Virus record (IMG/VR): IMGVR_UViG_3300034284_002638
Span: 1-64,000 of that record
Direction: 5' to 3' (one strand)
DNA from: a virus
Length of the DNA stretch: 64,000 bases
In this document: piece by piece, positions 19,400-42,996 of the stretch
Position numbering within the stretch: position 1 is the first letter of the stretch
How the letters are laid out: each line of letters starts with the position of its first letter
Position numbers and translations under genes: made by a program
The notes under the pieces: model-generated
Databases searched by the model: none
What the model saw: only the letters and a program-made list of their open reading frames with translations
Told to the model about the DNA's origin: nothing

Positions 19400-19732
19400 A
19401 TGGAAGTGGCAGACACGCTGAAGGCGTTGAAAATGGATCCGGTGGAGAAAAAGCTGCGTGGCATTATTATAGACCACATGTACACGTGCATTGAAGAGGG
19501 GATCGGACTCAAACACTGGATGGATCATCTTGCAAGTATGGACATCTGCGTGCACACCACCCTCCCAGATCTGATAAGATCTTCGATAGGAATGGGCAAA
19601 CAGAAGACATGTCCGTCAGATCCCGACAAAATCACGGTGGAGACAAATTTCGGACAAGTATACATGTCGCATGAGACGGCAGAAAAAATCATGACTCTAG
19701 GCTACATCCCCCTTCCGGAGAAAACAAAATGA
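19400..19732 (+). CDS. LGxP-family paralog 1
   Basis: WMDHLASMD...MSHETAEKIMTLGYIP. Confidence 0.75.
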   Translation: MEVADTLKALKMDPVEKKLRGIIIDHMYTCIEEGIGLKHWMDHLASMDICVHTTLPDLIRSSIGMGKQKTCPSDPDKITVETNFGQVYMSHETAEKIMTLGYIPLPEKTK

Positions 19733-19947
19733 CAAAAATTGAACTGCTTGAGTACCTCACAAGAATGGCCAAGGAATACAGATCCGGATGCGCAGCCTCC
19801 GTGATCAGGAACAGACACATGAACGAGACCAACGGCGAGTGCAACGCCGACCAGAACACAATAGACGCCATCTTGGTAGATTTTATAAACCGCATCGGCG
19901 TGGACCAACATGTGGACTACGGCTTGTACACGAGGGATTTAAATTGA
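19729..19947 (+). CDS. Hypothetical protein
   Basis: Coupled ORF. Confidence 0.6.
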   Translation: MTKIELLEYLTRMAKEYRSGCAASVIRNRHMNETNGECNADQNTIDAILVDFINRIGVDQHVDYGLYTRDLN

Positions 19948-20510
19948 AAATATACATTGGACCATATTTAAAATGGTGGGGTCCGTATCAGATTGCCGAT
20001 TTGCTCAAGTTTGTCGGCGTTCCAAAAGAACTCCGGGAAAAGATAGGCAAGCGTCTTGCCGATACTCCTCTCCTAGGAATATGCGAGTGGATTCACGCTC
20101 GCCGCAAGCGCACGGTCAAAATTCGCATAGACAACTACGATGTGTGGGGGATGGACAGCACCATCGCCTTGATAGCCTTGCCGTTGCTCAAGAAACTTAA
20201 GGAAAAGAAACAAGGATCTCCCCACGTAGACGACGAAGATGTTCCAGAGCATCTTCGTGTCGCCGCCGCAACGCCCTTGACAGAAGAGGAACAACACTGC
20301 GGATATCCCGACAATAATTTTCACCTCCGATGGGAGTGGGTGGTCGACGAAATAATCTGGGGGTTTGAGAACATGATCGCGGATGACGAAGGAAAGACCG
20401 AATTCTACAAAGAAGGCAGGCTGGATCTTGAAGCCCATAAGAAGTTCCACGACAGAATCCAGAACGCTATGTGTTTGTTCGGGAAGTACCTTCAAGGAAT
20501 GTGGGACTAA
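19944..20510 (+). CDS. Phage hypothetical protein (MKIYIGPY...LFGKYLQGMWD)
   Basis: TTG start overlapping the upstream stop. Confidence 0.65.
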   Translation: MKIYIGPYLKWWGPYQIADLLKFVGVPKELREKIGKRLADTPLLGICEWIHARRKRTVKIRIDNYDVWGMDSTIALIALPLLKKLKEKKQGSPHVDDEDVPEHLRVAAATPLTEEEQHCGYPDNNFHLRWEWVVDEIIWGFENMIADDEGKTEFYKEGRLDLEAHKKFHDRIQNAMCLFGKYLQGMWD

Positions 20511-20541
20511 GTTCCTTTGCATCGCTAAAAAAGAGACTATA

Positions 20542-20850
20542 ATGGGCGTAGAAAAACTAAGAACACTGCTGCGTCGCAAACTTGGGTGCATAAGAAAGGA
20601 TCTCTGGCTCGGGGGGGCTCACGGCGCAGATTGCGAATACCGCCACCAGATCGCCACGGAGAGGGCTTGGGCGGCTTACCTTGTCTCGATTGGATGTAAA
20701 CTTGTAGAGGAGCACGCGATCCGAAGAGACTTTGAGAGCGCGTTTAACGATGTCGCCCCGGGCACGATGTGCGTCAAGGTAGAAAGCGACTTCGTATTTA
20801 TCCCCGGAGAACTAGCCGCGAAGATTCTCGTATTGGGAGTTCTGCCGTGA
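20542..20850 (+). CDS. LGxP-family paralog 2
   Basis: WAAYLVSIGC...IPGELAAKILVLGVLP*. Confidence 0.75.
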   Translation: MGVEKLRTLLRRKLGCIRKDLWLGGAHGADCEYRHQIATERAWAAYLVSIGCKLVEEHAIRRDFESAFNDVAPGTMCVKVESDFVFIPGELAAKILVLGVLP

Positions 20851-20892
20851 CAAAAAAAATGTCGCACATCAAAAACTACTGGGCGATCTGAA

Positions 20893-21111
20893 ATGAAACT
20901 CTTTGCTTGCTACGCGATCTTCGCCCTGTTTGTCTCTTCTTGCTTCATGTCTCACCGCCATGAAGACTTCAAGTACTTGTCACTTTTCTCGGCGGGCGTC
21001 CTGCTGGGTTTCTTGGGCAACGAAATGTTCTCGACGGATTCCATAAAGACGAGAAGGGAGATGCCCAAGGGACCTCCTCCAGCGTTGCGCCCCAAGAGGC
21101 AAATAACATGA
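20893..21111 (+). CDS. Small membrane protein
   Basis: Two hydrophobic segments. Confidence 0.5.
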   Translation: MKLFACYAIFALFVSSCFMSHRHEDFKYLSLFSAGVLLGFLGNEMFSTDSIKTRREMPKGPPPALRPKRQIT

Positions 21112-21234
21112 ACTTCAATGATTTCTGTATAGTGGTCATCGCATACCTCTATATTGACTCTTGGATGACGGCCTTTCGTTTGAGAGGCATGCAGAAGAAA
21201 ATCGAGGAACTCCAGAAGGCACTGGGGATTAACG

Positions 21235-21459
21235 ATGAGTGACAAGAAAGATTGGAAACAGAAACAACTAGAAGCCATCCGATCCGGCTATACTCGCTCC
21301 AAAGAATTGGCAGAAGAAATATGGCTTGAGGGGAACCACGAGGGAACCCCCAATGATTTCTATTATTTCCAGTGTGGTTTTGTGGCCGGGTTGAATTATC
21401 AACGGCTGAAGGCTTTGGAAAAGCTGAGCGAACTTGATCAAGAATTGGGGTTTCAATAA
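21235..21459 (+). CDS. Hypothetical protein
   Basis: Coupled ORF. Confidence 0.6.
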   Translation: MSDKKDWKQKQLEAIRSGYTRSKELAEEIWLEGNHEGTPNDFYYFQCGFVAGLNYQRLKALEKLSELDQELGFQ

Positions 21460-21980: not shown

Positions 21981-22424
21981 ATGAGTTCTCACATCAAAAT
22001 CCAGAAACCCGACTCGTGGGCCAACAATCCCGTGCTTGTCGCCGGAGAGTTGGCGTTGGACACTAACGCGAACATGCTGAAGGTGGGCGACGGCGTGACG
22101 GCTTGGACCGAACTTCCCTATATTTCTTCAGACCGTTGGCGCTCGCCCGGAGCCGAGGAGGCAGACAGGCCGAGGGAAAAATTAAAAGACATGATCTTCT
22201 TGAAATATGTCAACATGCTGCGGGAAGAACTCGGCAGGATTGTGATGCCTTCGGATCTGACCGGTCCTGAGCCGAATGGTTGGCGAACTTGGATGGAGAG
22301 ACATGGCCTGAAATACTTGAAGCCGACGAAGGATCATGTGGATGTTCCCTTCATGGGGGGCGAGTCCATATACATGCCAAGAGACTTCGCGGACAAGGCT
22401 CTGGTGCTGGGGTTTCTGCCATGA
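21981..22424 (+). CDS. LGxP-family paralog 3 fused to an Mtd_N/hyaluronidase-N-like domain
   Basis: N-terminal WANNPVLVAGELALDT...KVGDGVTAWTELPY; C-terminal MPRDFADKALVLGFLP*. Confidence 0.75.
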   Translation: MSSHIKIQKPDSWANNPVLVAGELALDTNANMLKVGDGVTAWTELPYISSDRWRSPGAEEADRPREKLKDMIFLKYVNMLREELGRIVMPSDLTGPEPNGWRTWMERHGLKYLKPTKDHVDVPFMGGESIYMPRDFADKALVLGFLP

Positions 22425-22560
22425 TCGCCGTTGAAATTTTCGTACTAGCCATCGCGATATCAATCGTCTTCTGGCTGTTCGCCATGCCGGTCATGATTCT
22501 TTGTTTATGGTTCATTCAGAGATTCTTTCCTTCCCCCGACACCACTGATCCGGGGCCGAA

Positions 22561-22863
22561 ATGACAAAGGTAGAAAAAGCAGACAGGCTCTACCAGATAT
22601 TCAAGCGTAGATTTGATGAGATCAAAGACGACATCGTTCGTGGCTCGGCGAAAAACCGAATCTTCTTGATCAACGAAAAGATAGAAGAATACATGGAAAA
22701 ACTGCATCCTCACGCAAGGATGATGCACCAAGAAACCCTTGTTTACTTGATCAACGAGCAAGTCGTGGACGCGATTGCCGTGATAAGCCCGGTCCACGAA
22801 AAAAAGGTCATCGTATTAGAAGTGGAATACGCAAATAAGATTTTGGTGTTGGGGCTGCCATGA
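22561..22863 (+). CDS. LGxP-family paralog 4
   Basis: RLYQIFKRRF...LEVEYANKILVLGLP*. Confidence 0.75.
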   Translation: MTKVEKADRLYQIFKRRFDEIKDDIVRGSAKNRIFLINEKIEEYMEKLHPHARMMHQETLVYLINEQVVDAIAVISPVHEKKVIVLEVEYANKILVLGLP

Positions 22864-23420
22864 CCAAAAGGGAAAAAGCAGACAAGTTGCATCTGATGTT
22901 CAGAAACAGATTCGACGAGATCAAGTGCTATGGGGGTTTCGGCTATTCGGCCGGCGTCAAAGGAATTGACGAGTATATGGAAAGATTGAAGCCTGATGTT
23001 ATAATGGTGCGTTGTGTCCATCTTGTATCCGTGATCAACAACGATTTCGTGGATTCAATCGCCGTGAGGAATCCTTATGACGGCGACAAGGCCATCGTTA
23101 TGGATGCGGGGTATGCCGACAAGATACTCGTGCTGGGACTACCACGAATAAAAAAAATAGAGTTGGGGCTGATCGGACTGGGTTTCGCCACCTTGCTTTT
23201 TCTGACGCCTTTTCTGAACGAAATCCACAAGAAAAATATTGAATCCCTCCGGGAACCGCCGGTCTTCAGAATCGAGGAACACCCGAGACTTCAGGCCCAC
23301 TGCAAGACATGCGAGCGTTGCAGGGAAATGGTATATAATCCCGAAAAGCCTACCCCGCCGATTTGCGACATCGGCATGGGCCTCATGGTAGAGGACGTCA
23401 AGGAAAGGTGGGGAAAATGA
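22860..23420 (+). CDS. LGxP-family paralog 5, reading through into a TM/Cys-containing domain
   Basis: Tandem paralog of 4; YADKILVLGLP followed by CGA where TGA is usual. Confidence 0.7.
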   Translation: MTKREKADKLHLMFRNRFDEIKCYGGFGYSAGVKGIDEYMERLKPDVIMVRCVHLVSVINNDFVDSIAVRNPYDGDKAIVMDAGYADKILVLGLPRIKKIELGLIGLGFATLLFLTPFLNEIHKKNIESLREPPVFRIEEHPRLQAHCKTCERCREMVYNPEKPTPPICDIGMGLMVEDVKERWGK

Positions 23421-23833
23421 CCGAAGAATGCGCCGATCCCGAAGCCCCGAAAGAGAATTGCGTCTCCTGCGGGAAGATCGTCCACACGTGCGAGAGGAAG
23501 ACCCCCGTCAACGACAGTTATCTCTGCCCGGCACACGGAGAAGGATGGCAGTTGGACGATGGAGTCTGGGTCTGCGGCGCGGAATGCGAAGAAAAATACT
23601 TCAGGAGGGAGTCTTTCAAGCGGGACATCAAATTTTTCCATCCGTTCAACTTTCTGGTTTTCAGAAAGCCCAAGATGGACGACCCCGAATGGCACCCCAG
23701 CGATGATCTATGCCAGTACGGATTCAGTCTGGATTTGACCACCGAATTGTACTACTACACATACGATTGGGGTCGTGGCATCAATTTCAGAATTCTGGGC
23801 TTCGGATTTGAATGGACGAAGGTGAAAATGTGA
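23417..23833 (+). CDS. Cys-rich hypothetical protein, copy A
   Basis: CxxC, YLCPxHG; paralog at 40321. Confidence 0.7.
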   Translation: MTEECADPEAPKENCVSCGKIVHTCERKTPVNDSYLCPAHGEGWQLDDGVWVCGAECEEKYFRRESFKRDIKFFHPFNFLVFRKPKMDDPEWHPSDDLCQYGFSLDLTTELYYYTYDWGRGINFRILGFGFEWTKVKM

Positions 23834-24084
23834 AAAACTGGGAATTCACCCTAGAACTGACGGGCGCGGAAGACTTGACCACCGAACTGGCCGACGCTTT
23901 GTTCCTTGCGGGGTGCGCCGACGCAACCCTCAGCAAGTCCGGAGGCAAGTTGTGGCTGGACTTTGACAGGGACTCTGAATCCTTGGAAGAGGCCGTTCGG
24001 ACTGCCATTGATAATGTGCGCCGTGCCGGCGAGAGGCTGGGTTTTTCTTTGGACGCCAAGGAGGCGAGAGATGGAGATCGGTGA
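23830..24084 (+). CDS. HicB-N-like small protein, copy A
   Basis: WEFTL...LADALFLAGCADAT...LDFDRDSESLEEAV; paralog at 41013. Confidence 0.55.
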   Translation: MKNWEFTLELTGAEDLTTELADALFLAGCADATLSKSGGKLWLDFDRDSESLEEAVRTAIDNVRRAGERLGFSLDAKEARDGDR

Positions 24085-24478
24085 TAAGATAGAGGGAGTT
24101 TCCGGCCGCTTCGGGGATTTCGTGGGCTCGTTCAACAAGAGCGACATGGAGCCCGACCCGAACTTGGAGTACATCTACGATCACGGCACTGTCTTCTGCG
24201 AGGAGGCTCCGTACAATCTTCCCACAGAATACGCTTGCCGTGGGCGCAAGATCGCAGTCAATGTCAGGAAGCAGAAAGGATATTCTTGTAAATACAGCTT
24301 CAACTTCATAGACGACGAGACCAAAAAGGAATACCATACCCACTACGGATGGAGCCTCATCCCCAACACCTCCGAGAACTTGCTGAGGCTTGAGGAGATC
24401 AGAGGGCTCAATGATCAGATTAATCAGCTCGGAATTCGCATAGGGGCGGTCAGGAAGGAAATGGGTCACCTGGGGTGA
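24071..24478 (+). CDS. Hypothetical protein, copy A
   Basis: Close paralog at 32538. Confidence 0.7.
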   Translation: MEIGDKIEGVSGRFGDFVGSFNKSDMEPDPNLEYIYDHGTVFCEEAPYNLPTEYACRGRKIAVNVRKQKGYSCKYSFNFIDDETKKEYHTHYGWSLIPNTSENLLRLEEIRGLNDQINQLGIRIGAVRKEMGHLG

Positions 24479-24482: not shown

Positions 24483-24737
24483 ATGACACGCAGTTTGATA
24501 GCAATTTCAATACTTTTCCTCTCCGCTTGCGGAGTGAACCAAGAAAAAACTTATAGAGTCTACGATGTGACAGACGCTAGTGGCAAAACATATCGCAATC
24601 TAAATCATTCAGGCGGCGATGTTTTCATAGACTACGACGGAAATCAATACATTTTCAACGGAAACTACACGGTAATAACCAGAAAAGTTTCGGGCGAACA
24701 GTTTTTGAGGGAAGTTCAACACCGAGAAAAGCCTTGA
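24483..24737 (+). CDS. Putative lipoprotein
   Basis: Signal peptide with lipobox LSAC. Confidence 0.6.
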   Translation: MTRSLIAISILFLSACGVNQEKTYRVYDVTDASGKTYRNLNHSGGDVFIDYDGNQYIFNGNYTVITRKVSGEQFLREVQHREKP

Positions 24738-25006
24738 GAGAAATTGAACAAAAACTCAATCAGATGATGATCAAACTTATGGCCTTTCTTTTTGAGAGCG
24801 CCCAGAACGGAAGTTTCGGCTGGGATGACTGGCTGGCGACGAACGGAATAACGACGACGCCCGAAAACAAGGACGAATATTGGGCGGTGACAATCAATAC
24901 TGCATTTTCTAACAAAGGAGAATGCTATGCGCGGCATGAGGCGACCACATTCCATGTCCCCAAGGAACTTGCCACGAAAGCCCTCGTGCTGGGGTTCTTG
25001 CCATGA
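24734..25006 (+). CDS. LGxP-family paralog 6
   Basis: WDDWLATNGI...VPKELATKALVLGFLP*. Confidence 0.75.
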   Translation: MREIEQKLNQMMIKLMAFLFESAQNGSFGWDDWLATNGITTTPENKDEYWAVTINTAFSNKGECYARHEATTFHVPKELATKALVLGFLP

Positions 25007-25254
25007 ATCTTGATCGTCTTGAAGCCGCCGAGAAGATTGAGAGCCTCCTGGCCCTCAAATACGACCGTGACTTCTACATGACGGGGAAGTCATGGAGTGA
25101 CTACCTTGAGTCCATAGGGTGCTTCTCCGACCCCCATTATTCGTTCTTCAAGGTGGTAGATCCGGAGAGTTTCCACAAGCGCGGCGGCCTTACTTTCGTG
25201 AGAATACCCGAAGAATTCGCCTTCAAGGTCTTGGTGCTGGGCGAGTTTCCTTGA
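25003..25254 (+). CDS. LGxP-family paralog 7
   Basis: WSDYLESIGC...IPEEFAFKVLVLGEFP*. Confidence 0.75.
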   Translation: MNLDRLEAAEKIESLLALKYDRDFYMTGKSWSDYLESIGCFSDPHYSFFKVVDPESFHKRGGLTFVRIPEEFAFKVLVLGEFP

Positions 25255-26602
25255 ACTTTACATCTATAAAAAAGGGACTACGAGAAAAGCACGCATAGAC
25301 CCGTATGGATAAACGGGTCTCCAAAAGAAAAGAAACGAAGAAGCGTCGGTCAAAAATGGACTGCCGAGTCTTCGAGTTGAAACTGGACCGCTCCAAGATG
25401 TCAAAGAAGACCCGTACGCACCTTTCGCAACTGTTCACGGAGGCGAAGTGGTTCTACAACTACTGCCTGTCCATGGATGACATCAACGAGTCCGACACCA
25501 CAGCCAAGACCGTCCCCGTCAAGGTAGAGGACAGGTACGAGGATCGGCCACTGATTGTTTTCGGCGGAGAGATGAAGCAGGCGATGAAGGCAAGAATATT
25601 CGGGTCTTTGTCCTCGCTCAAGGCCCTGAAGGAAAAGGGACACAAGGTCGGAAGACTAAAGTTCAAGAGCAGGATCAACTCCATACCTCTGAAACAGTAT
25701 GGTGCGACCCACCAGTTGGATAAGAAAAAGTCAATGGTCAAGATCAGGAGCGTGAGGAAGTGGCTCAAGGCATCCGGACTCAACCAAATTCCCGACGATG
25801 TTGAGATCGCCAACGCCAACCTCGTGCGGAAGGCCGACGACTTCTACCTCAAGGTCACCACCTTCGGCGAGAAGAAGGAGAGGGTCGTGCCGGAGGCGAG
25901 CATCGGCATAGACTTCGGGTGCGAGACCCAGTTGACGTTCAGCGACGGTACGAAGGTCGAGTTCCAGGTCCCCGTGAGCAAGCGGCTCCGCCGATTGGAC
26001 AGGAAGATCATGAGGGACAGACGTCCCGACTCCAAGAAGAAGAACCAAGACAGGATCAAGAGACAGCGGGAGTACGAACGTATTTCCAACAGGAAGAAGG
26101 ACATAAGGAACAAGATCGTTCATGCGATAACCAGCAGTTTCAGGTATGTGTGCTTTCAGGACGAGAGCGTCCACGCTTGGCAAGCAAGTGGTCACGGGAG
26201 GAAGATACAGAATTCTGGCATCGGCGGGATAATCTCCGACTTGAAGAACAAGTCGGTAACGCCGTGTGAGGTTCCCAAGTTCTTCCCCTCGACCAAGCTC
26301 TGTCCGAGTTGCGGCAGTTTGAATAGGCTTTCTTTGGGGGAAAGGACATACCGGTGCGGTTGTGGTTTTGAGCGTGACCGTGACTGGAAGTCGGCCTCTT
26401 GTATAGAGACCGAAGGTTTGATACAAAAAAGAGTACCTGTGGAACGCAGGGATTTTAAGGTGCAGGAGAGTTCCGCCTCTGCCTTCGTCGGGCTGTTGAG
26501 TAAGATCAACGGAATCCGCGTGAAGGCAAGCGGGTTCAATGAATGCAGGAAGCCCACGGCTTCAGCGAGCCTGAGGGCTCGCTGAAGCCGTGGGTAGTTC
26601 AC
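25255..26602 (+). mobile_element. Non-autonomous IS200/IS605-type (IS1341-like) tnpB-only element
   Basis: tnpB ORF with no tnpA; 8-bp hairpin at 25297-25320; 19-bp perfect hairpin at 26553-26594 followed by TAGTTCAC. Left boundary is approximate. Confidence 0.75.
25305..26585 (+). CDS. tnpB: TnpB RNA-guided endonuclease
   Basis: RuvC-I GIDFG, RuvC-II FQDE, PSTKLCPSCG...YRCGCG zinc ribbon, RuvC-III DRDWKSA. Confidence 0.88.
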   Translation: MDKRVSKRKETKKRRSKMDCRVFELKLDRSKMSKKTRTHLSQLFTEAKWFYNYCLSMDDINESDTTAKTVPVKVEDRYEDRPLIVFGGEMKQAMKARIFGSLSSLKALKEKGHKVGRLKFKSRINSIPLKQYGATHQLDKKKSMVKIRSVRKWLKASGLNQIPDDVEIANANLVRKADDFYLKVTTFGEKKERVVPEASIGIDFGCETQLTFSDGTKVEFQVPVSKRLRRLDRKIMRDRRPDSKKKNQDRIKRQREYERISNRKKDIRNKIVHAITSSFRYVCFQDESVHAWQASGHGRKIQNSGIGGIISDLKNKSVTPCEVPKFFPSTKLCPSCGSLNRLSLGERTYRCGCGFERDRDWKSASCIETEGLIQKRVPVERRDFKVQESSASAFVGLLSKINGIRVKASGFNECRKPTASASLRAR

Positions 26603-26603
26603 A

Positions 26604-26849
26604 ATGAGCGCAGACAACTTTGTCATCGTCCGCAAGTTTGAGGACGGGTGGCGTTGGGCCATGGGCTTCGCCACCCATTGTGTTGAAAACAACCTCTCTT
26701 TTGGAGAGGGGGTCAAGGACCGGAGTTTCGTCAACGGCCCATTCGGCACGATTGAAGATGCGTCAAGCCACGCCGAAAAAGAACTCGGAATCATCGAGTA
26801 CGGAATAATCGTGGACAACCATAAAGAGATCCATAATGACCACGCTTGA
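26604..26849 (+). CDS. Hypothetical protein (MSADNF), copy A
   Basis: Paralog at 31835. Confidence 0.7.
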   Translation: MSADNFVIVRKFEDGWRWAMGFATHCVENNLSFGEGVKDRSFVNGPFGTIEDASSHAEKELGIIEYGIIVDNHKEIHNDHA

Positions 26850-27105
26850 ATATTGGGTTGTTCGTGTGGCCTATTTGGTCGAGGGCGCCGCCGGAGTCGC
26901 CGGACTGGCCGCTATGGTGCTTGTTCCTTGGATTCTTCTGATCGGGTTTGTTTCGTGCTGGCTTTGGCGCCGATCAAAGTATTCAAAACTCCGTTCCGCC
27001 GTCAGGCGCCTCTTGGACGATGTCAACTCCCGCTACCCGGACAAGAACCCAAGGGAGTGGAGTTGTCCCTATATGCAGGCCTTGGACGACATGACCCATA
27101 CATGA
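26836..27105 (+). CDS. Membrane protein with a YPDKNPREWSCPY C-terminal module
   Basis: TM N-terminus; C-terminus shared with 32046-32330. Confidence 0.65.
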   Translation: MTTLEYWVVRVAYLVEGAAGVAGLAAMVLVPWILLIGFVSCWLWRRSKYSKLRSAVRRLLDDVNSRYPDKNPREWSCPYMQALDDMTHT

Positions 27106-27479
27106 AAAACCAAGCCATCAAACTCTTGCTGTGCCGGATGCACGAACTTTCTTGTTGGTATCGGACCAACTTCAGGAACCATAGCCAATTAGACGGCTAC
27201 AGGTCCGAGTATGACTTGCACCAAGCCTACCTTGAGGAGATCGGATGCTCTTGCGTCCGTAGAGAGAAAATCATCGTCCGAGAGTTCTTGCAGAATCCCG
27301 ACAAACAAACCTTGGAATCCCTCGGGCTTCCGGAAGGACGATTCGTCGCTTTGGCCCACCCTTGGGAGGCGACTACGATCATACTTATACCCGAAGACCT
27401 CGCCATGAAGGCCGTCGTTCTCGGGGAGTTCCCGGCAATGGATGCGTTCGGGCAACCAAGGAGCCATCAACTTGCATGA
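27102..27479 (+). CDS. LGxP-family paralog 8
   Basis: AYLEEIGC...IPEDLAMKAVVLGEFP. Confidence 0.75.
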   Translation: MKNQAIKLLLCRMHELSCWYRTNFRNHSQLDGYRSEYDLHQAYLEEIGCSCVRREKIIVREFLQNPDKQTLESLGLPEGRFVALAHPWEATTIILIPEDLAMKAVVLGEFPAMDAFGQPRSHQLA

Positions 27480-27715
27480 GAGTCTATATCGTCATCGGAA
27501 CGACGGAAGGCGTCTACCAAGACGAAATCGGCGGGCCTTTTCTCCCTCATCCCGACAAGGAAATCGTTGAAGTATTCTCAAAGCAGGAGGATGCGGAGAA
27601 TTTCGTCAAGAACAGGAAGTTGAAGAAGCCGGAAAGAGGGAGTTACGGCGACACCTCCTTCTACAAGGGCGGATACTACGAACTTGAGGTAGAGGAACAT
27701 GAAGTCAGAGGATGA
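27476..27715 (+). CDS. Phage hypothetical protein (MRVYIV...LEVEEHEV)
   Basis: Coupled ORF. Confidence 0.6.
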   Translation: MRVYIVIGTTEGVYQDEIGGPFLPHPDKEIVEVFSKQEDAENFVKNRKLKKPERGSYGDTSFYKGGYYELEVEEHEVRG

Positions 27716-28016
27716 CGACGGACGCTATTTGCTCTTGGGAGGAAGATCCTCGCCCGGCCCTCTGTCGGCTCAAGGCCCCATCTACGACAGGTTCCAGAAT
27801 TTTTTGTACGACATGGTGGCCCTCGGTACGCCGCAGCCGAAGGGGAGGGCGGATGCCTTGAAGACGAGACTAGAGGGTGTCGGGGTCAGATTTTCAAATA
27901 ACCCATGGCCTCCGACCCGAAAGCCAAACGAATGGGTGTTCGCATCGCCCTTCGGAGCGCACCTCGCAATTGACAAGGAAACCGCCGAGAAAATATTGGT
28001 GCTGGGACTGCCATGA
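27699..28016 (+). CDS. LGxP-family paralog 9
   Basis: RLEGVGV...IDKETAEKILVLGLP*. Confidence 0.75.
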   Translation: MKSEDDDGRYLLLGGRSSPGPLSAQGPIYDRFQNFLYDMVALGTPQPKGRADALKTRLEGVGVRFSNNPWPPTRKPNEWVFASPFGAHLAIDKETAEKILVLGLP

Positions 28017-33674: not shown

Positions 33675-33677
33675 AAT

Positions 33678-33817: not shown

Positions 33818-33876
33818 TTGAAACGATTGCATCAATTTGACAGATGGCATAAGAAACTGACCAAGGAATGCTGTAA

Positions 33877-34161: not shown

Positions 34162-34418
34162 AACTTGAAAGCCAGATAGTCGCGATGCTTTGGCACAAGA
34201 GCCATGAGATAATCATGATCAAGAAGCCTCCTAGGCCCCAAATGGATTGGTACGAGAAAAACTGGCTTTCGTATTTGATGGACATAGGCATCTTTCCATA
34301 TGATGAGCACTCTCCTAACCTCGACGATCTCGTGATCGTCAATGATCCATGCGGCACTGGTCGTTTGGCGCTGTCAAAGGAAACGGCCATGAAGATCATG
34401 GTTTTGGGGCTGCCATGA
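34158..34418 (+). CDS. LGxP-family paralog 22
   Basis: WLSYLMDIGI, LSKETAMKIMVLGLP*. Confidence 0.75.
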   Translation: MKLESQIVAMLWHKSHEIIMIKKPPRPQMDWYEKNWLSYLMDIGIFPYDEHSPNLDDLVIVNDPCGTGRLALSKETAMKIMVLGLP

Positions 34419-36743: not shown

Positions 36744-36772
36744 TTTACACCGACCTAAAACGAGACTAGAAT
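36744..36772 (+). promoter_or_regulatory. Sigma70-like promoter
   Basis: TTTACA-N17-TAGAAT, same style as 31324. Confidence 0.65.
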
Positions 36773-36967: not shown

Positions 36968-37351
36968 ATGAAGAAGAAGATCGCCGAGAAATGGGTCAAG
37001 GCCCTTCGTTCCGGAAAGTACAAGCAGGGCAGGCACGCCCTCAAGTACAAGACCAAGGCCGGAGTCACGAGGCACTGCTGCCTCGGGGTATTGTGCGAAC
37101 TCTACCAGAAGGAGCACAAGAGGAAGTTGAAGACCGAGGCAGAGAGAGGCACTGAAGAACTCAGGGACTGCAAGGTGATGAAATTCGGCGACTGCAACGG
37201 GACGTTGCCCGAAAAGGTGATGATTTGGAGTGGCATAGGAATCGACGATGGCGGACTGCCCGACGGACGCACCCTCGCCCAGATGAACGACCACGGCGAT
37301 GACTTCGAAGACATCGCGTATGTAATTGAGAGCGAGTACGATGGTCTATGA
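36968..37351 (+). CDS. Phage hypothetical protein (WVKALRSGKYKQG...CCLGVLCEL)
   Basis: Motif recurrent in phage hypothetical proteins. Confidence 0.65.
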   Translation: MKKKIAEKWVKALRSGKYKQGRHALKYKTKAGVTRHCCLGVLCELYQKEHKRKLKTEAERGTEELRDCKVMKFGDCNGTLPEKVMIWSGIGIDDGGLPDGRTLAQMNDHGDDFEDIAYVIESEYDGL

Positions 37352-37635
37352 CCCACCCCCTTGATGTCACCGAGGGATGGACGAAACTCTACGCCACCAT
37401 CCACTCCGAATTCGCGCTCGCCCAGATGAAAGGGAACTTGGTCTATCCCGGAGAGATGATAGACGAATGGAACGCCCGATTGGAGTCGCTCGGCATGATC
37501 CTCACAGATTATCAAACTTGGACGGGAATAAAAGGGTCAAACCCCAACGGCATCACCATGTCCAATCCCGCCGGGGGATGGATTCAAATTCCGTTGGATG
37601 TGGCGACGAAGGTACTGACGCTGGGGTTGCCGTGA
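37348..37635 (+). CDS. LGxP-family paralog 23
   Basis: KLYATIHSEF, WNARLESLGM, IPLDVATKVLTLGLP*. Confidence 0.75.
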   Translation: MTHPLDVTEGWTKLYATIHSEFALAQMKGNLVYPGEMIDEWNARLESLGMILTDYQTWTGIKGSNPNGITMSNPAGGWIQIPLDVATKVLTLGLP

Positions 37636-37916
37636 TGAGACCCGACAGGAAACTCGCGGAGACGATCCAGAAGGCGTATTACAATTCCGACCCTTGGCCT
37701 CCGAAGAGCGAGGACTGGCTGAGGCGCATACTCCGAACGGGAGCCTGGTTGGCAAGGGCGGATAACGCTGAAATTCAACTTGAGAAAGATCCCAACCTTT
37801 GTTCGTGTGCGGATCCCGGAGACTTCATGTGCCGGACATTCGGCGTCGTGGAGGCGACCATGATCCTCGTCCCGAAGGAAATCGCAATCAAAATCATGAC
37901 ATTGGGGCTGCCGTGA
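37632..37916 (+). CDS. LGxP-family paralog 24
   Basis: WLRRILRTGA, VPKEIAIKIMTLGLP*. Confidence 0.75.
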   Translation: MMRPDRKLAETIQKAYYNSDPWPPKSEDWLRRILRTGAWLARADNAEIQLEKDPNLCSCADPGDFMCRTFGVVEATMILVPKEIAIKIMTLGLP

Positions 37917-38203
37917 ACAGAGAATCAATCTCCAAACTGGAGCACATGTTTCGTGATAGTTTCTTTAGGCTTTACGACATGTATTTCAGACATGAGCCCG
38001 TCATCAAACACGATTGTGTCATGCTGAAGTGGACCGAATTCTTGAAGGGTCATGGATGCTATTTTCTTTTAAAGGGCCGTCTTGTTGAGCCAGTGAATCA
38101 TCCGAAAGGCTTCGTGCTCGTGTCCGACCCCATCAGGTGCAGAACAATAGCGGCCCCGACAGAATTCGCCCTAAAGGCTCTGTATTTTGGCGAAATCCCA
38201 TGA
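37913..38203 (+). CDS. LGxP-family paralog 25
   Basis: WTEFLKGHGC, APTEFALKALYFGEIP*; sister of 28324. Confidence 0.75.
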   Translation: MNRESISKLEHMFRDSFFRLYDMYFRHEPVIKHDCVMLKWTEFLKGHGCYFLLKGRLVEPVNHPKGFVLVSDPIRCRTIAAPTEFALKALYFGEIP

Positions 38204-38520
38204 GCATGGATACTTTTTTAGACCAACTCAACCTCAAGGTGTACCGGCTCTTCAGAGAGAAGGGCAAGGAACTGAAGGGTGCGGGCTTGTTCTCCGAAGA
38301 GGGTTGGCTGGAGTACATACATTCGCTGGGGTGCGAAACCTCCGACAAGCAATCCTGCACCCGGTGTGGCAAGACCAGCATCATCCCTTATGACTCAAAG
38401 ATGATTGTCTTCAGGGACGAACATTTTATTCGGGAAAAGGACGGATCAAAATACTACGACCGAATGATATTGGTAGACACAGAAACGGCATTCAAGATCG
38501 TCGCACTGGGACTGCCATGA
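38200..38520 (+). CDS. LGxP-family paralog 26
   Basis: KVYRLFREK, WLEYIHSLGC, VDTETAFKIVALGLP*. Confidence 0.75.
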   Translation: MSMDTFLDQLNLKVYRLFREKGKELKGAGLFSEEGWLEYIHSLGCETSDKQSCTRCGKTSIIPYDSKMIVFRDEHFIREKDGSKYYDRMILVDTETAFKIVALGLP

Positions 38521-38813
38521 TAACCCGAGAAAACAAGGACAAGATCGCCCAACTCATTCAAGAGTCCACCTCGCATCCGAAATTGAAGTTCTCGGACACG
38601 CTCCCGAAGAAGTCCGGGATGAGCTTCTTCCAAGAGGAACTCCTCAAACTCGGGATAAAGGAAGTAGAGAAGGACAAGGGCAAATTCGACAGCAAGAAGC
38701 ACATAATCATTGATCTGGGGTGGCCCGTCAGAAGCGGCAAAGTGCTGAAAGTTCCAACCCCGTTGGCCATAAAGATTCTGGCGTTGGGCTTTTTTCCTTG
38801 GAAGATACAATAG
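38517..38813 (+). CDS. LGxP-family paralog 27
   Basis: EELLKLGI, VPTPLAIKILALGFFP. Confidence 0.72.
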   Translation: MITRENKDKIAQLIQESTSHPKLKFSDTLPKKSGMSFFQEELLKLGIKEVEKDKGKFDSKKHIIIDLGWPVRSGKVLKVPTPLAIKILALGFFPWKIQ

Positions 38814-38827
38814 TTTTGGAGACACTC

Positions 38828-39070
38828 ATGGACGACGCCGAGAAACAAGATTTTGAACTCAATCCCGTCTCCCTCAAGACGGCCGGAACTATGAAGGTGC
38901 GCTATGTAAACGGGGACAAACTCAAGCCAGTGCAACTTGAAGATGGCGGACTAACATCCGGACAGCGGGATGCGATAAGAATCGCCTTGGTACATTTGAT
39001 CTTGGCCTCGGTGAAAGACCCCTCGCTAGAAAAACACATTGAAACACTCAGGGACATGATTGAAGCATGA
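38828..39070 (+). CDS. Hypothetical protein with an LT..R.AI module
   Basis: Start MDDAEK; shares 21 nt with 31443. Confidence 0.55.
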   Translation: MDDAEKQDFELNPVSLKTAGTMKVRYVNGDKLKPVQLEDGGLTSGQRDAIRIALVHLILASVKDPSLEKHIETLRDMIEA

Positions 39071-39285
39071 GCAAATTGGGAAGAACCGCGTGGTGCCTGC
39101 GTTCGCCGAAGGGGAGGCTTGTCATCAAGACGCTCCATTCAAGCCGATCCGCATGTCTGGAGTTGAGCATCCCGTGCTTCAGATTCAAGCATAACTGGCT
39201 CCAGCCTTTTAACAGGACATGGAAGGAAGCCAGAAGTCTCGGGTGGAGCGTTGTCCTTGTGGATATCAAGGAAAAATCAAAATGA
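39067..39285 (+). CDS. Hypothetical protein
   Basis: Coupled ORF. Confidence 0.55.
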   Translation: MSKLGRTAWCLRSPKGRLVIKTLHSSRSACLELSIPCFRFKHNWLQPFNRTWKEARSLGWSVVLVDIKEKSK

Positions 39286-39436
39286 ACATTTTTCAAAAAC
39301 TCAATACTCCGATAACTGTTCCTAAATGGAAGTATGCTCTTTTGTGGCTTTTGGTGTTTATGACCGCCGTCACTCACATGTTTAAGAAGTGACCGTCGGC
39401 CAAAGGAAAAACACATGACTGAGTCAAAGGTGAATA

Positions 39437-39799
39437 ATGAGTGAACAAGAACCTGTGGCGTGGGCTCTTTATCCGCCTCTTGATGAAACGCCAAAAAAGC
39501 CAGTGATGGTATTTCAATGCCTAAAAGATGCGAATGATGAAGCGATTGAGTCCGGGTGTGATATCGTCCCTCTGTACCGCCAATCGCGGTGGATTCCTAT
39601 AACGGAACAACTCCCCCCAGAGGGCGAGCGCGTTTTGTTTTACTTGGACGATCCGTTGACAGAGGTGAATCTTGGATGGTGGGAGGGCAAGCACACGCAC
39701 GGCAAAGCGATTGCCATGGAGTACGGAGATGCCGACGGCGATTGGCTCCCGTGTAGCCACTGGATGTCGCTTCCGACCACAACGAGTGAACAAAAATGA
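39437..39799 (+). CDS. DUF551-like phage protein
   Basis: WIPITEQLP...SHWMSLP. Confidence 0.7.
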   Translation: MSEQEPVAWALYPPLDETPKKPVMVFQCLKDANDEAIESGCDIVPLYRQSRWIPITEQLPPEGERVLFYLDDPLTEVNLGWWEGKHTHGKAIAMEYGDADGDWLPCSHWMSLPTTTSEQK

Positions 39800-39913
39800 G
39801 AAGAACAAACCAGATAGTCGGCATGGTCAACTTCCCGGTGGACTCGGATCAGTACGAGAGCACCAAGGTATGATTAGGTTGCATACGCTGCCAACCCCAG
39901 TGACGAGATGTAG

Positions 39914-40324
39914 ATGAAACCGAGAAAGCAAAAAAAAATGAACGACGAACAGAAAACTTGGTTGAAAGTTCTCCTTTATTTAGTTGCAATCATATCATTG
40001 GTTTCTTTCTTGTGTTATTTGGACAATGAGTGGAGAGAGAAGATGGGCTCCGCCATCTTTTGCCCCAAGGGCGTCAAGCCGAACAATGTGGTGGAACGCT
40101 TCCACGAACACCAAGAAGTCAAGGTCTTGGAAAAGGGTACCGACGAGGTCGTAAGGACCTACGGAAGGGTGCGGCTCACTTTCCTCTCCAAGGATTCGTT
40201 CATGATACAGGACGACAACACAGGGAACCCCATCCTGCTTCTCGTGCAACTCAAACCCAACGAATATGTCACGGCGTTCACGAAAACTGAAAATTTTGAA
40301 GCCAAGGCTTGGGGTTTAAAATGA
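39914..40324 (+). CDS. Single-TM hypothetical protein
   Basis: N-terminal hydrophobic helix. Confidence 0.55.
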   Translation: MKPRKQKKMNDEQKTWLKVLLYLVAIISLVSFLCYLDNEWREKMGSAIFCPKGVKPNNVVERFHEHQEVKVLEKGTDEVVRTYGRVRLTFLSKDSFMIQDDNTGNPILLLVQLKPNEYVTAFTKTENFEAKAWGLK

Positions 40325-40734
40325 ATGAGTCTTGTGCCGATCCCGACGCCCCGCTCGAGAGCTGCTTCGTGTGTGGAAAATCCATCCACACCTGCGAAAG
40401 GAAAGAGGCCGTAAACAACAGCTATCTCTGTCCCGTTCATGGCGACGGGTGGCAGAGGGGCGATGGGGCTTGGATCTGTAGCGAGGAGTGCGACCAGAAG
40501 TATGAAGCCGACAAGCCCCGCCACTCCAGCTTAAAGTTCTTCCACCCCTTCAACTTCGTCTTCGTCAAGAGGCCGAAGACGGACGATCCCAACTGGCACC
40601 CCAGTGACGACCTTCACCAATATGGATTCAGCCTTGACCTGACTACCGAACTTTATTTCTACACCTACGACTGGGGCCGGGGTTTTAACTTCAGGGTATT
40701 GGGATTCGGATTCGAGGTGTGCTTCAACCCATGA
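40321..40734 (+). CDS. Cys-rich hypothetical protein, copy B
   Basis: Paralog of 23417. Confidence 0.7.
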   Translation: MNESCADPDAPLESCFVCGKSIHTCERKEAVNNSYLCPVHGDGWQRGDGAWICSEECDQKYEADKPRHSSLKFFHPFNFVFVKRPKTDDPNWHPSDDLHQYGFSLDLTTELYFYTYDWGRGFNFRVLGFGFEVCFNP

Positions 40735-40940
40735 ATATCGAAAACGAGTTCCACACGGCGATCCTTCTGACGATCGACCTGCACCGCCTGGTCACCGCCG
40801 GGCAAGGCGAGTCGGAGGAAGCCGACATCGTCCGCGAAACGCTGGGCAGTCTGCTGCTGACATTAGAGAAGGACGACAGCGACCTTTGCGCTAAGGTATC
40901 GGCGAGGCTAGACTGGTACGAGAGATGGTATAGACAATGA
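40731..40940 (+). CDS. Hypothetical protein
   Basis: Coupled ORF. Confidence 0.55.
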   Translation: MNIENEFHTAILLTIDLHRLVTAGQGESEEADIVRETLGSLLLTLEKDDSDLCAKVSARLDWYERWYRQ

Positions 40941-41012
40941 AAATAAAAAAGCTCACGGCGGACCTCAGCCGAAGTGCAACCCGTACACAGCATTCGATGA
41001 AAAGGTGGATGT

Positions 41013-41267
41013 ATGACTAAAACTTGGGATTTCACCCTCGTGCTGAAGGGGGTGTCGGACTTGACCGACGATCTGGCCGACGCCCTTTTTGAGGCGGGAT
41101 GCGACGACGCGACCCATAGCATGGTGGGCGGCAAGCCTCTTCTTGATTTCTCCAGGGAGGCGGAATCGCTCGAGGAAGCCGTCTTGACCGCCTTGGAAGA
41201 CATCCGGCGGGCCGGCGAGATGCTGGGTGTCCCTTTGGATGTGGAACGCATTGGAGATGAACTGTGA
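41013..41267 (+). CDS. HicB-N-like small protein, copy B
   Basis: LADALFEAGCDDAT...LDFSREAESLEEAV. Confidence 0.55.
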   Translation: MTKTWDFTLVLKGVSDLTDDLADALFEAGCDDATHSMVGGKPLLDFSREAESLEEAVLTALEDIRRAGEMLGVPLDVERIGDEL

Positions 41268-41506
41268 AACTCTCCGACGACAACATCAAAAAGCTTGAAG
41301 TTCTTCTTCGCAACGCACTTGCGATTAGATCAATGGGTCCTGAGGCTCTGCCTGCGAGTAGCGGCATTTTTTTGGCAGACATGATGTACGATTTCAGCGA
41401 ATTCCCGAAGGGTTTCGTGCCGGTGAATCTCGGGATGGAGTATTACGCCTTGATTCCCAATGAACTAGCCATGAGGGCGTTGACCCTCGGCCACCTTGAA
41501 TTTTAA
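41264..41506 (+). CDS. LGxP-family paralog 28
   Basis: KLEVLLRN, IPNELAMRALTLGHL. Confidence 0.7.
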   Translation: MKLSDDNIKKLEVLLRNALAIRSMGPEALPASSGIFLADMMYDFSEFPKGFVPVNLGMEYYALIPNELAMRALTLGHLEF

Positions 41507-41509
41507 ACC

Positions 41510-41896
41510 ATGAATTCCGATAAATTCTGGGCACGGGAGGCCCTCAACAAACTCACCGAAGTCCTCACTGGAGCCATCGGCCCGCCCTTCCCGGTTCAAC
41601 AGAACCAGCCCTTGCCCCATCCTCCATTTTTGGAGAAGTGGAGGGAATTCTGTATAAAACACAAAATCAAGCCGGGAGCCCCCGACTTCTATGTCAAGGG
41701 CGCTCACTACACCGACAAGTCCGTTGCGGACTTCTATGATTTTGAAGAAGTGCCAATGTACTACGATCATAAAAACACGGTCGTTGTCCTCAACCCCTTC
41801 TTCGGCCAAAAGTCAGAGGAAGACTTTCTCAGATACAAATGGCTTGAAATAGACGCGGAACTGGCGGTGAGGTTCCTTGTGCTAGGTCTCCCATGA
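41510..41896 (+). CDS. LGxP-family paralog 29
   Basis: WREFCIKH, IDAELAVRFLVLGLP*. Confidence 0.75.
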   Translation: MNSDKFWAREALNKLTEVLTGAIGPPFPVQQNQPLPHPPFLEKWREFCIKHKIKPGAPDFYVKGAHYTDKSVADFYDFEEVPMYYDHKNTVVVLNPFFGQKSEEDFLRYKWLEIDAELAVRFLVLGLP

Positions 41897-42288
41897 GCGA
41901 AAATAAAAGCATATCCAAGAGGGCTTTTGAACTCTTGTACGACGAGTTCAGCAAGATCACTCACATGTCTCACTGGTCTTATGGCGATCATCGTCGCCCC
42001 ACGGGCACGAACCGAATGCTATACAGATGGGACAGATACCTCAAGAAACTCGGTGGGGTTCGAAGGGAGACGCTGAAGGATTTCCTGATCGACTTCAAGC
42101 CGAAACTGAGGGATGACCAGTTCGTAGCCGTAGATCCGGCCACGAAGTTCTACAACAGGGGCGGATCTGACGGCAGGGTCAGGATGCTCGTCATCGACAA
42201 GGACTTCGCGCTCAAGATGCTTACGATTGGCCCCCCAGACATCAGGGAAATGAAGTACAGGGTTCCACGGGACTGGGAGGCGGAATGA
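41893..42288 (+). CDS. LGxP-family paralog 30
   Basis: WDRYLKKLGG, IDKDFALKMLTIGPP. Confidence 0.72.
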   Translation: MSENKSISKRAFELLYDEFSKITHMSHWSYGDHRRPTGTNRMLYRWDRYLKKLGGVRRETLKDFLIDFKPKLRDDQFVAVDPATKFYNRGGSDGRVRMLVIDKDFALKMLTIGPPDIREMKYRVPRDWEAE

Positions 42289-42680
42289 GTTCCACGAACT
42301 GGTCCAAGAAGAAATTAAAAAAGGCTCCCCTTCCTTGGATTCGTGCTCCATGGGAACTCAAAGATCCGACCCATCGGAAGATCATGCTCGTAATTAATCA
42401 ATCCTTTGAAAGAATGTTCGGTCACAAGTTCACGCTCAGTTGCTCCGAGAGGAGATTGTGGGGAGAGTTCTTGAACGAGAGAGCCATACATTGGAAGATA
42501 AAACTCCCCCGACAGCCCGCGGATTGCGACTCCTGGAATGGTTGGAATTTTGTGGTGTGCCCAAAGGACTCGGTTCTTTTGGCCCAACCAAAGAACCTAG
42601 AGGGCTATGTGGAGGTCGGCAAATTCTTTATTCCTGAGGATCTAGCCACAAGAATGCTGGTTCTGGGGGAGCTGCTATAA
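42285..42680 (+). CDS. LGxP-family paralog 31
   Basis: WGEFLNERAI, IPEDLATRMLVLGELL*. Confidence 0.72.
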   Translation: MSSTNWSKKKLKKAPLPWIRAPWELKDPTHRKIMLVINQSFERMFGHKFTLSCSERRLWGEFLNERAIHWKIKLPRQPADCDSWNGWNFVVCPKDSVLLAQPKNLEGYVEVGKFFIPEDLATRMLVLGELL

Positions 42681-42681
42681 A

Positions 42682-42996
42682 ATGTATTCAAGCAACGGAA
42701 CAAGTCTCATCACCGAGATCGAGGCCAAACTAGGAGATCTGATGAGGGATGGTTTTCCCCACGACGGAACATATTCAGAATATCACAAGGCCAAAGATAA
42801 ATTTCTCGCATGTATAGAGGCCAACGGAATAAGGCTTATGTCCTTCTGGGATTATACGGAAACGAAGAAGAAAAAAACGACCGGGATCAACCTTGCCCCA
42901 AGCCCGTTCTCAACTCCAGGCAGGGAAGACCATTATGTCGTATTCGACGACGAACTAGCGACGAGGGTGTTGGCGTTGGGCTTTCTTCCTAGATAA
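42682..42996 (+). CDS. LGxP-family paralog 32
   Basis: FLACIEANGI, FDDELATRVLALGFLPR*. Confidence 0.72.
   Translation: MYSSNGTSLITEIEAKLGDLMRDGFPHDGTYSEYHKAKDKFLACIEANGIRLMSFWDYTETKKKKTTGINLAPSPFSTPGREDHYVVFDDELATRVLALGFLPR

Follow-up and report, generated by a model that had tools for sequence, protein, structure and literature searches.

A tandem array of an undescribed small protein family in an accessory gene block of an uncultured giant freshwater phage

Our study revealed an array of 32 small paralogous genes and one gene remnant, all on the plus strand and within 23.6 kb (positions 19400–42996), in a 64,000-nt stretch of IMG/VR virus record IMGVR_UViG_3300034284_002638 (positions 1 to 64,000 of the 101,673-bp record, G000; the stretch is hereafter the window). 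As judged from the sequences of this record, of three other IMG/VR phage records (G001, G002 and G003) and of database relatives, the array arose by lineage-specific expansion of a single, previously undescribed family of proteins ~100 amino acids (aa) long, within an accessory gene block, and the family is new to curated libraries and recurrent in several freshwater phage lineages. The array is carried by an uncultured giant phage of freshwater or lake water, and the stretch was present in lake-water metagenomes from 2018–2024. The source is judged to be a jumbo or mega-phage, because the exact protein of array member 17 is encoded on a contig of 261,744 bp and the 101.7-kb record was estimated by CheckV to be 18% complete. 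The length of this contig lies above the genome size of at least 200 kb used to delimit jumbo-phage paralog expansions.

Array census, anchors and predicted fold

A strict regular expression for the C-terminal motif of the family (A.[KR].h.hG.{1,2}P), applied to the six-frame translation of the window, gave 24 matches, all on the plus strand between 19679 and 42990, and zero matches elsewhere in the window. A hidden Markov model (HMM) was built from these matches and applied to the window and to the whole record. It recovered 33 open frames and a 42-aa remnant, with nothing significant outside 19322–42993 in the whole 101,673 bp, and an independent profile search of the record likewise returned 33 matches. 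After start-codon choice there were 32 genes of 80–304 aa (median 103.5 aa), with a longest run of 11 consecutive members at 27699–31838. A first-pass annotation of the window had described 32 co-oriented paralogs with a remnant and the same run of 11 genes, and the HMM, the choice of starts and the gene map bore out both the count and the positions. The members are listed below with E-values from the HMM of regular-expression matches; a second value, where given, is from the independent profile search of the record.

19400–19732 (+): member 1, 110 aa, tail ...TLGYIPLPEKTK; E 7e-15
20542–20850 (+): member 2, 102 aa, start codon chosen; E 3e-15
21981–22424 (+): member 3, 147 aa, N-terminal Mtd_N-type tail-fibre motif at aa 13–40; E 4e-14
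22561–22863 (+): member 4, 100 aa, missing in the related strain of run X8; E 2e-17
22860–23420 (+): member 5, 186 aa, with RIKK after the family domain, then a single predicted transmembrane helix and a tail rich in Cys; E 3e-16
24734–25006 (+): member 6, 90 aa, TTG start; E 3e-14
25003–25254 (+): member 7, 83 aa; E 2e-16
25305–26585 (+): TnpB-like gene, not of the family, inserted inside the array, with OrfB_IS605 and Cas12f1-like TNB domains (Pfam)
27102–27479 (+): member 8, 125 aa; E 1e-15
27699–28016 (+): member 9, 105 aa, first of the 11-member run; E 4e-13
28013–28327 (+): member 10, 104 aa; E 2e-7, then 6e-17
28324–28617 (+): member 11, 97 aa; with member 25 it forms the closest pair of paralogs (56% identity)
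28614–28979 (+): member 12, 121 aa, GTG start, DSPSIEKMR extension past the motif; E 1e-18
28957–29271 (+): member 13, 104 aa; E 2e-9, then 6e-23
29268–29732 (+): member 14, 154 aa, long loop insertions; E 3e-18
29716–30009 (+): member 15, 97 aa, TTG start; E 3e-14
30006–30317 (+): member 16, 103 aa, degenerate tail ...AILISDFP; E 2e-8, then 2e-21
30314–30643 (+): member 17, 109 aa, AlphaFold-modelled; E 3e-19
30640–30927 (+): member 18, 95 aa, 84% identical to its G002 ortholog; E 4e-20
30924–31838 (+): member 19, 304 aa, family domain followed by a single predicted transmembrane helix and a further ~130 aa at the C-terminus; E 4e-17
32914–33039 (+): remnant, only the ...LLLPEELALKMMVLE tail left and no full reading frame; E 0.004 over tail positions only
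33366–33674 (+): member 20, 102 aa; E 8e-14
33877–34161 (+): member 21, 94 aa; E 3e-8, then 3e-20
34158–34418 (+): member 22, 86 aa; E 2e-16
37348–37635 (+): member 23, 95 aa; E 7e-16
37635–37916 (+): member 24, 93 aa; E 2e-14
37913–38203 (+): member 25, 96 aa, GTG start; E 4e-5, then 3e-21
38200–38520 (+): member 26, 106 aa; E 2e-16
38517–38813 (+): member 27, 98 aa; E 3e-16
41264–41506 (+): member 28, 80 aa, GTG start, weakest member, mainly its C-terminal half matches; E 2e-5, then 3e-8
41510–41896 (+): member 29, 128 aa; E 2e-11
41893–42288 (+): member 30, 131 aa, tail ...LTIGPPDIRE...; E 5e-13
42285–42680 (+): member 31, 131 aa, tail ...LVLGELL; E 2e-5, then 3e-17
42682–42996 (+): member 32, 104 aa, AlphaFold-modelled; E 3e-15

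The C-terminal part of member 5 had no Pfam match, and that of member 19 matched neither the family nor Pfam. The N-terminal motif of member 3 was indicated by PF18454 (E 2.7e-7) and by matches to tail-fibre PHROGs, and this N-terminus also matches those of two giant open reading frames (ORFs) of 1692 and 768 aa in G002. These ORFs (38667–46049 of that record), with their Mtd_N-type N-termini, are inserted between homologs of window genes 15676–16356 and 16316–17158, which are neighbours in the window.

An alignment of 144 sequences (26 window members and 118 database relatives) had a mean column identity of 13% and contained four anchors. The first lies in the first helix (K8-L9..[IL]12-[LF]13..[KR]16), the second at the end of the second helix (W42..Y45-L46...G50-(C)), the third at the end of a strand (V71.I73.[DN]75-P76) and the fourth forms the tail (I84.V86-P87.E89.A91.K93-I-L-V-L97-G98.L100-P101). 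W42, P76, A91, K93, G98 and P101 were conserved in at least 90% of the sequences, and K8, L9, L13, K/R16, Y45, L46, G50, D/N75, I84, P87, E89, L95 and L97 were also strongly conserved. The first seven residues are variable and conservation is strongest at the C-terminus, with homology over the whole length. The anchors that the first-pass annotation had named besides the tail (an N-terminal helix, W..YL...G and [DN]P) proved real in this alignment, and the loops between them do vary as freely as it had proposed, with insertions and deletions of up to 23 residues concentrated after positions 27, 58, 65 and 78. Codons at conserved residues vary (GCC, GCG, GCA and GCT for alanine; GGG, GGC, GGA and GGT for glycine; six codons for leucine) and third-position identity at identical residues is 47%, so that conservation is at the level of the protein, as that annotation had also noted, and is not that of a DNA repeat. 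Thirteen members run on past the motif with the terminal proline still kept, and this residue is therefore not merely a by-product of the ATGA/GTGA overlaps between genes. No conserved cysteine pairs were found; members have 0–6 cysteines, and the only frequent one, C51, occurs in 42% of sequences. The isoelectric point (pI) of the members ranges from 4.8 to 9.8 (median 6.2), and many are acidic.

Members 17 and 32, which are ~16% identical, were modelled with AlphaFold2, giving a predicted local distance difference test (pLDDT) of 88 and a predicted template modelling score (pTM) of 0.81 for member 17, and 83 and 0.73, respectively, for member 32. Both models have the same order of elements, namely helix, helix, strand, helix, strand, strand, helix (H-H-E-H-E-E-H). 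Because two such distant models share this order and profile matches span the full length of the members, one common small alpha/beta fold with variable loops is supported, in agreement with the earlier proposal of a single scaffold. The natural reading of the tail is a strand that leads into an amphipathic helix, N-capped by P/D-x-E and C-capped by G-x-h-P, and a helical wheel would place the near-invariant E89 and K93 exposed on the face opposite the hydrophobic stripe. As the first-pass annotation had proposed, this last helix might dock a common partner or mediate oligomerization, although its hydrophobic pattern and capping residues would fit an integral structural helix equally well. A homodimer prediction for two copies of member 17, using the 144-row alignment, returned no answer (score 0.01) and is evidence neither way.

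No convincing structural relative of the predicted models emerged from the fold searches, which does not by itself prove a new fold. The best E-values from Foldseek were 0.44 against the PDB and 0.26 against BFVD, the best Z scores from a wide VIA-align search were 4.3 for the member-17 model and 3.0 for the member-32 model, and the ESM Atlas gave no usable feature match and structure matches at a template modelling score of 0.43 or below. The PAS/PDC-like sensor domains of RisS, CpxA, ParS, KinD and McpU came up repeatedly near the top of the lists for both models, at Z 4.3–2.2 only and with root-mean-square deviations of 4–5 Å over 68–78 residues; PAS/PDC domains have an antiparallel sheet of five strands with flanking helices, compared to three strands in each model.

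Distribution, age and turnover of the copies

The family was unrecognized in the first-pass annotation, and our searches of Pfam, PHROGs, NCBIfam and PADLOC likewise gave no family-level match for members or relatives. An exhaustive profile search of 1.84 billion representative proteins, clustered at 50% identity, found 708 clusters at E ≤0.001, of which 44 also passed E ≤1e-10, and nearly all had proteins of 80–130 aa. The motif was carried by 148 of the top 150 clusters, 110 of which end no more than three residues from it, while 38 extend further. Longer, fused forms were sought separately and none was found, which is weak evidence for their absence. One entry in the match list, a 745-aa fish LMBR1-like protein (P0142), was rejected as a false positive.

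Arrays were identified in the three other IMG/VR records, with 27 copies in G002, 19 in G003 and 8–9 in G001. A degenerate DNA pattern for PKE.A.K.LVLG, used to find further arrays, detected two of them (those with 27 and 8–9 members). In JGI metagenomes it gave 41 stretches, 18 of them genuine and most of these multi-copy, with up to 8 members per 11 kb and on contigs of up to 147 kb. The same pattern had 12 matches in GTDB cellular genomes, none of which encodes a family member, although a scan with so narrow a pattern is no proof of absence. Neither megablast nor tblastn against 50,697 GenBank phage records matched the array or member 17, and a search for related loci with a distant member (P0037) found nothing.

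The sister record G002 (73 kb), in which core proteins are 63–93% identical to those of the window, allowed the age of the copies to be gauged. Within the window, paralogs are 23–56% identical, mostly 23–40%, whereas for 25 of the 32 members the nearest relative lies in G002 and not among their own paralogs, and 18 are reciprocal best matches of a G002 member. Non-anchor residues are 59% identical and loop residues 49% identical between orthologs, compared to 20 and 18% between paralogs. As orthologs are far more alike than paralogs, most copies are old and individually maintained. The ratio of non-synonymous to synonymous divergence (dN/dS) was 0.11–0.44 in all 11 ortholog pairs of the family for which it could be computed between G000 and G002. 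The purifying selection that the first-pass annotation had named as a check of its proposal is thereby confirmed, and the mixture of recent and very old divergence that it had described is present in the comparison of paralog and G002 identities.

The sequences further indicate that the array grew by tandem and segmental duplication, and that the set of copies is reshuffled, gained and lost between related phages, and probably exchanged. Outside the family, four gene pairs of the block are duplicates too, at 68–85% amino-acid identity, so that segmental duplication affects the block as a whole and the family is not its only target:

23408–23833 and 40309–40734: duplicated non-family pair within the block
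23906–24478 and 32538–32945: duplicated non-family pair within the block
26604–26849 and 31835–32053: duplicated non-family pair within the block
26836–27105 and 32046–32330: duplicated non-family pair within the block

One family copy has decayed to the tail remnant at 32914–33039, which spans an intergenic gap. The array of G002 is partly syntenic with that of the window, and rearranged, and in G003 (59 kb) PrkA, SpoVR and ClpP are 81–94% identical to the window, whereas its 19 members match only at 27–48%. Synonymous divergence (dS) between the window and G002 is 0.6–1.6 across 27.9–32.3 kb, compared to saturation for most core (replication and metabolism) genes, which suggests that array cassettes were exchanged between phages more recently than the backbone diverged. 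The G002 counterpart of window positions 27900–32330 lies at 58900–67200, and dS is 0.62 in the neighbouring non-family gene at 32046–32330.

Gain and loss were also seen in a related strain, ~90% identical, from another freshwater metagenome (run X8). Contigs of this run join position 22569 to 22869, indicating a strain without member 4, and join 25255 to 26603 with 26 other letters between, indicating a strain without the TnpB-like gene. The presence of these letters in place of 25256–26602 suggests that the TnpB-like gene, which is without TnpA, is a recent mobile insertion in the megaphage. Runs X5–X7 contained near-identical fragments at low coverage and added no variation.

Possible functions of the family

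The probable site of action of the domain is the cytoplasm of the infected cell, because the members lack signal peptides and two of them (5 and 19) continue into a transmembrane helix that anchors them N-in; in both, basic residues stand before this helix. Our preferred reading, which we hold tentatively and which is the weakest step of the interpretation, is that the members are a repertoire of binding proteins aimed at different host or competitor factors. The conserved scaffold, possibly through the exposed E-x3-K face of the last helix and the G-x-L-P end, would give a common function, and the copy-specific loops would recognize different factors of the host or of competing phages, in the service of host takeover, counter-defence or exclusion. 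This reading would be the most economical for copies that appear to be old, to differ from one another, to evolve under purifying selection and to pass between phages, that lie in an accessory block and that probably work in the cytoplasm. Several points weigh against it. Its functional part is drawn by analogy with other viral paralog expansions, and the mixed charge of the members, together with the lack of a recognizable domain, leaves several activities possible. The near-invariant polar residues K8, K/R16, D/N75, E89 and K93 could mark one shared ligand or catalytic-like site, and the copies might then differ little in what they do. No conserved neighbour gene travels with the family in distant arrays (in the stretches compared, no non-family gene of this phage recurs beside them), so that a phage-encoded common partner is not indicated. 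Lastly, promoter-like sites in the block are only slightly above shuffled expectation.

A more specific form of the repertoire reading would have the copies act as immunity-type or antitoxin-like neutralizers, each blocking a different toxin (a host abortive-infection or toxin–antitoxin effector, or the weapon of a competing phage), by analogy with the orphan immunity-gene arrays of polymorphic toxin loci and with T4 Dmd. That small, very diverged cytoplasmic proteins stand in tandem runs, are under purifying selection and turn over rapidly between close relatives would be in keeping with this, as would the presence in the block of a lipoprotein-like gene and small membrane proteins typical of exclusion genes, and a weak HicB profile match (E 0.08) over a strand–helix segment. 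However, no toxin-like gene was recognized beside the runs, the run of 11 members has no partner genes in between, the HicB match, of borderline significance, covers 40 residues and is outscored by a spurious coiled-coil protein, and none of the 144 aligned members matches the HicB, antitoxin or Imm families of Pfam; we consider neutralizers unlikely. It is rather unlikely, in our estimate, that a new fold serves as a modular adaptor set, in which the exposed E-x3-K face and G-x-L-P, perhaps with W42 and D75-P76, would dock one conserved host machine while the four loops capture different targets; were it so, the megaphage would carry ~30 interchangeable specificity modules, swapped as cassettes between phages. 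The first-pass annotation had speculatively named the phage ClpP or the PrkA AAA+ protein as possible common partners; in such a model, the C-terminal helix would serve to deliver different targets to the protease or to the kinase. Genes for ClpP and for PrkA–YeaH–SpoVR do stand 7–14 kb upstream of the array in this phage and in G003, where the PrkA/YeaH-like/SpoVR cluster is 86–94% identical, but the distributions disagree. G002 has 27 members, yet its 73-kb fragment has no PrkA module, neither at the syntenic site nor beyond it; G001 has 8–9 members and neither gene in its 122-kb fragment; and the complete 595-kb genome LR756511.1 encodes a PrkA 67% identical to that of the window but gave no family member and no ClpP match, in searches whose positive controls worked. 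As the motif is not strictly C-terminal, it is also not a free-end degron, and this proposal is left unsupported and very improbable. Thus the shared fold, the variable loops, the selection and the novelty to libraries stood from the earlier interpretation, whereas its ClpP/PrkA partner did not.

Three further readings were weighed. Small transcription factors or other nucleic-acid-binding proteins that diversify gene regulation would agree with the conserved basic residues K8, K/R16 and K93 and with a strand-then-helix tail resembling the entry to the DNA-binding domain of HicB, and have a precedent in the suggestion made for the zinc ribbons of phage G (PMC7824862). The mixed charge and median pI of 6.2, with many members acidic, argue against a general nucleic-acid binder, and Pfam scans gave no helix–turn–helix (HTH), ribbon–helix–helix (RHH) or zinc-ribbon signature; moreover, the proteins end right after one helix and two are membrane-anchored, which makes such a role quite unlikely. 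Virion-associated accessory proteins, either packaged and injected or docking on fibres or the baseplate with the tail as an assembly signal, are brought to mind by the Mtd_N-type motif of member 3, which also heads the two giant fibre-like ORFs of G002, and by the conserved terminal peptide on many small proteins, which recalls targeting signals. This too we regard as improbable, given that the fibre motif is found in only one of the 32 members, that the block lies among nucleotide-metabolism and replication genes and not among structural genes, that both models place the tail with confidence in the fold, as an integral helix and not as a free peptide, and that residues extend past it in 13 members and in 38 of 148 database relatives. 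Finally, tandem duplication might largely be neutral filling that inflates a head-full-packaged genome with copies of little individual function. The arrays of more than 30 genes in G and 121Q were read by Hua et al. as expansion by duplication (PMC5646251), and the block does contain duplicated non-family genes, a decayed copy and an insertion-sequence (IS)-type insertion. Against this, dN/dS is well below 1, the paralogs are old yet intact, 18 are kept as orthologs in G002 and the anchors are conserved across ~700 clusters; we hold filling to be distinctly improbable.

Giant phages carry hundreds of unassigned genes, among which large paralog arrays are strikingly unexplained and a plausible route to genome size. 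The present family offers a clean case for study, with clear anchors, confident models, ~700 clusters, orthologs across sister phages and copy-number differences between strains. Were the copies target-specific binders, as in the repertoire reading, the array would be a catalogue of the host or defence factors that are manipulated, and a small stable scaffold with naturally variable loops; were they to share one activity, it would instead illustrate gene dosage or the filling of a genome.

The surrounding gene block and comparison with known systems

The array is part of a larger block, flanked on both sides by minus-strand genes of nucleotide metabolism and replication:

18603–42996 (+): co-directional block of ~65 tightly packed genes, 32 of them family members (gene map)

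Most junctions in the block, those of non-family genes included, are 4-nt ATGA/GTGA overlaps. The GC (guanine–cytosine) skew switches near 18 kb and 43 kb, and a divergent pair of sigma-70-like promoters was identified at 18566–18631. Consensus scans of the block for promoters and terminators were marginally above shuffled controls, Rfam and tRNA scans of the block gave no match, and no RNA run is among the listed public runs that carry the stretch. Besides the family, the block contains a lipoprotein-like gene, several small membrane proteins, DUF551, the IS-type insertion and otherwise unrecognized genes, a content that fits an accessory region. Three of the small non-family genes (24483–24737, 20893–21111 and 22421–22564, all +) encode one lipoprotein-like signal (…LFLSAC…) and, in the others, a single transmembrane helix; genes of this type often mediate superinfection exclusion.

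Two further features of the block were observed. A recurrent motif, consisting of TTTACA or TTTGCA, ~10 nt, AAAA(A/C)GAGAC and then TA.AAT, lies upstream of block genes at 20516–20543, 25258–25285 and 36744–36772, and in the 26 letters that replace the TnpB-like gene in run X8; it may be a phage-specific promoter variant. A gene-free gap of 202 nt (33675–33876, +) is predicted to form a multibranch RNA fold with a 14-bp closing stem, followed by UUUU, at a minimum free energy of -70.7 kcal/mol (z = -2.74 compared to shuffles). This gap had no Rfam match and no copy in G002, G003 or the rest of the record.

The flanking genes encode ClpP, SpoVR (with an intein), a YeaH-like DUF444 protein and PrkA; a PfkB/cytidylyltransferase fusion, ThyX and glycosyltransferases; a TnsA/endonuclease-I-like nuclease, a DEAD helicase, UvsX/RecA-like and T4-type gp32-like proteins; and GMP reductase, a DnaB-like helicase and a family A polymerase. 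The SpoVR homolog (6555–9389, -), in the PrkA/YeaH-like (DUF444)/SpoVR cluster adjoining ClpP, is split by an intein with a LAGLIDADG homing-endonuclease domain. In G003, the open frame with the PrkA homolog (26552–29992) is ~3.4 kb, compared to 2.15 kb in the window, with an aligned part that is 94% identical, and may carry an intein or other insertion.

Among known proteins, a local resemblance was seen to the antitoxin HicB, which has a beta-beta-beta-alpha-beta N-domain followed by a DNA-binding domain. The profile match to E. coli HicB (PDB 6hpb/6u0i; segment ...HFIEVPLSVASKVLLLN...) rests on a likeness of ~25 residues, comprising a Pro-rich loop, a beta-strand, Pro and an amphipathic helix A-x-K-h-L-h-L. 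The family differs in its predicted H-H-E-H-E-E-H order and in ending after the last helix. None of the 144 members has a Pfam match to the HicB fold, and no C-terminal RHH or HTH domain was found, as 110 of 148 relatives end no more than three residues past the helix-capping Gly and the rest have short or unrelated tails. No HicA toxin was recognized in Pfam and PHROGs scans of 20 neighbouring non-family ORFs, which do not comprise every small ORF. The coiled-coil protein that scored better than HicB in the PDB profile search, CFAP73 (E 0.002), was dismissed as an artefact. The tail also shows what we take to be a resemblance to the 'I-x-V-P-K-E-h-x-x-K-L-G' of the swapped-hairpin domains AbrB, MazE and SpoVT, although Pfam scans, with the sequence models SpoVT_AbrB and MazE, gave no match at E up to 1 (ten members) or 0.01 (144 members). 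T4-type internal proteins share a capsid-targeting sequence as a short N-terminal leader on otherwise unrelated proteins, whereas the present family is homologous over its full length. The ankyrin/PRANC (F-box-like) host-range adaptors of poxviruses are alike in idea only: they too are numerous paralogs of a large DNA virus, in which a C-terminal element is conserved while the target-binding parts vary. No member of the present family has a Pfam match to ANK or PRANC, and its conserved tail is predicted to lie inside a globular fold.

The nearest parallels are found in other jumbo phages. A lineage-specific expansion of ~35 zinc-ribbon proteins in Bacillus phage G, suggested to be transcription factors or structural DNA-binding proteins (Iyer et al. 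2021, PMC7824862), has a comparable copy number of one small domain, with a function that is likewise only guessed. The family described here differs in having neither conserved cysteine pairs nor a zinc-ribbon signature and in its predicted alpha/beta domain of ~100 aa. Phages G and 121Q also contain tandem arrays of more than 30 similar genes, which were interpreted as enlargement of the genome through duplication (Hua et al. 2017, PMC5646251). As in our phage, dozens of co-oriented small paralogs without an assigned function stand in one block of a very large phage and grew by tandem duplication. The families are different, since none of the 144 members matches any PHROG, and the copies of G and 121Q are 'very similar', whereas those of the window are mostly 23–40% identical and many are kept as orthologs in a sister phage. 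Given these reports, the label of a new system in the first-pass annotation was overstated: the jumbo-phage tandem paralog array is a kind of feature already known, and what the window adds to it is a previously undescribed family.

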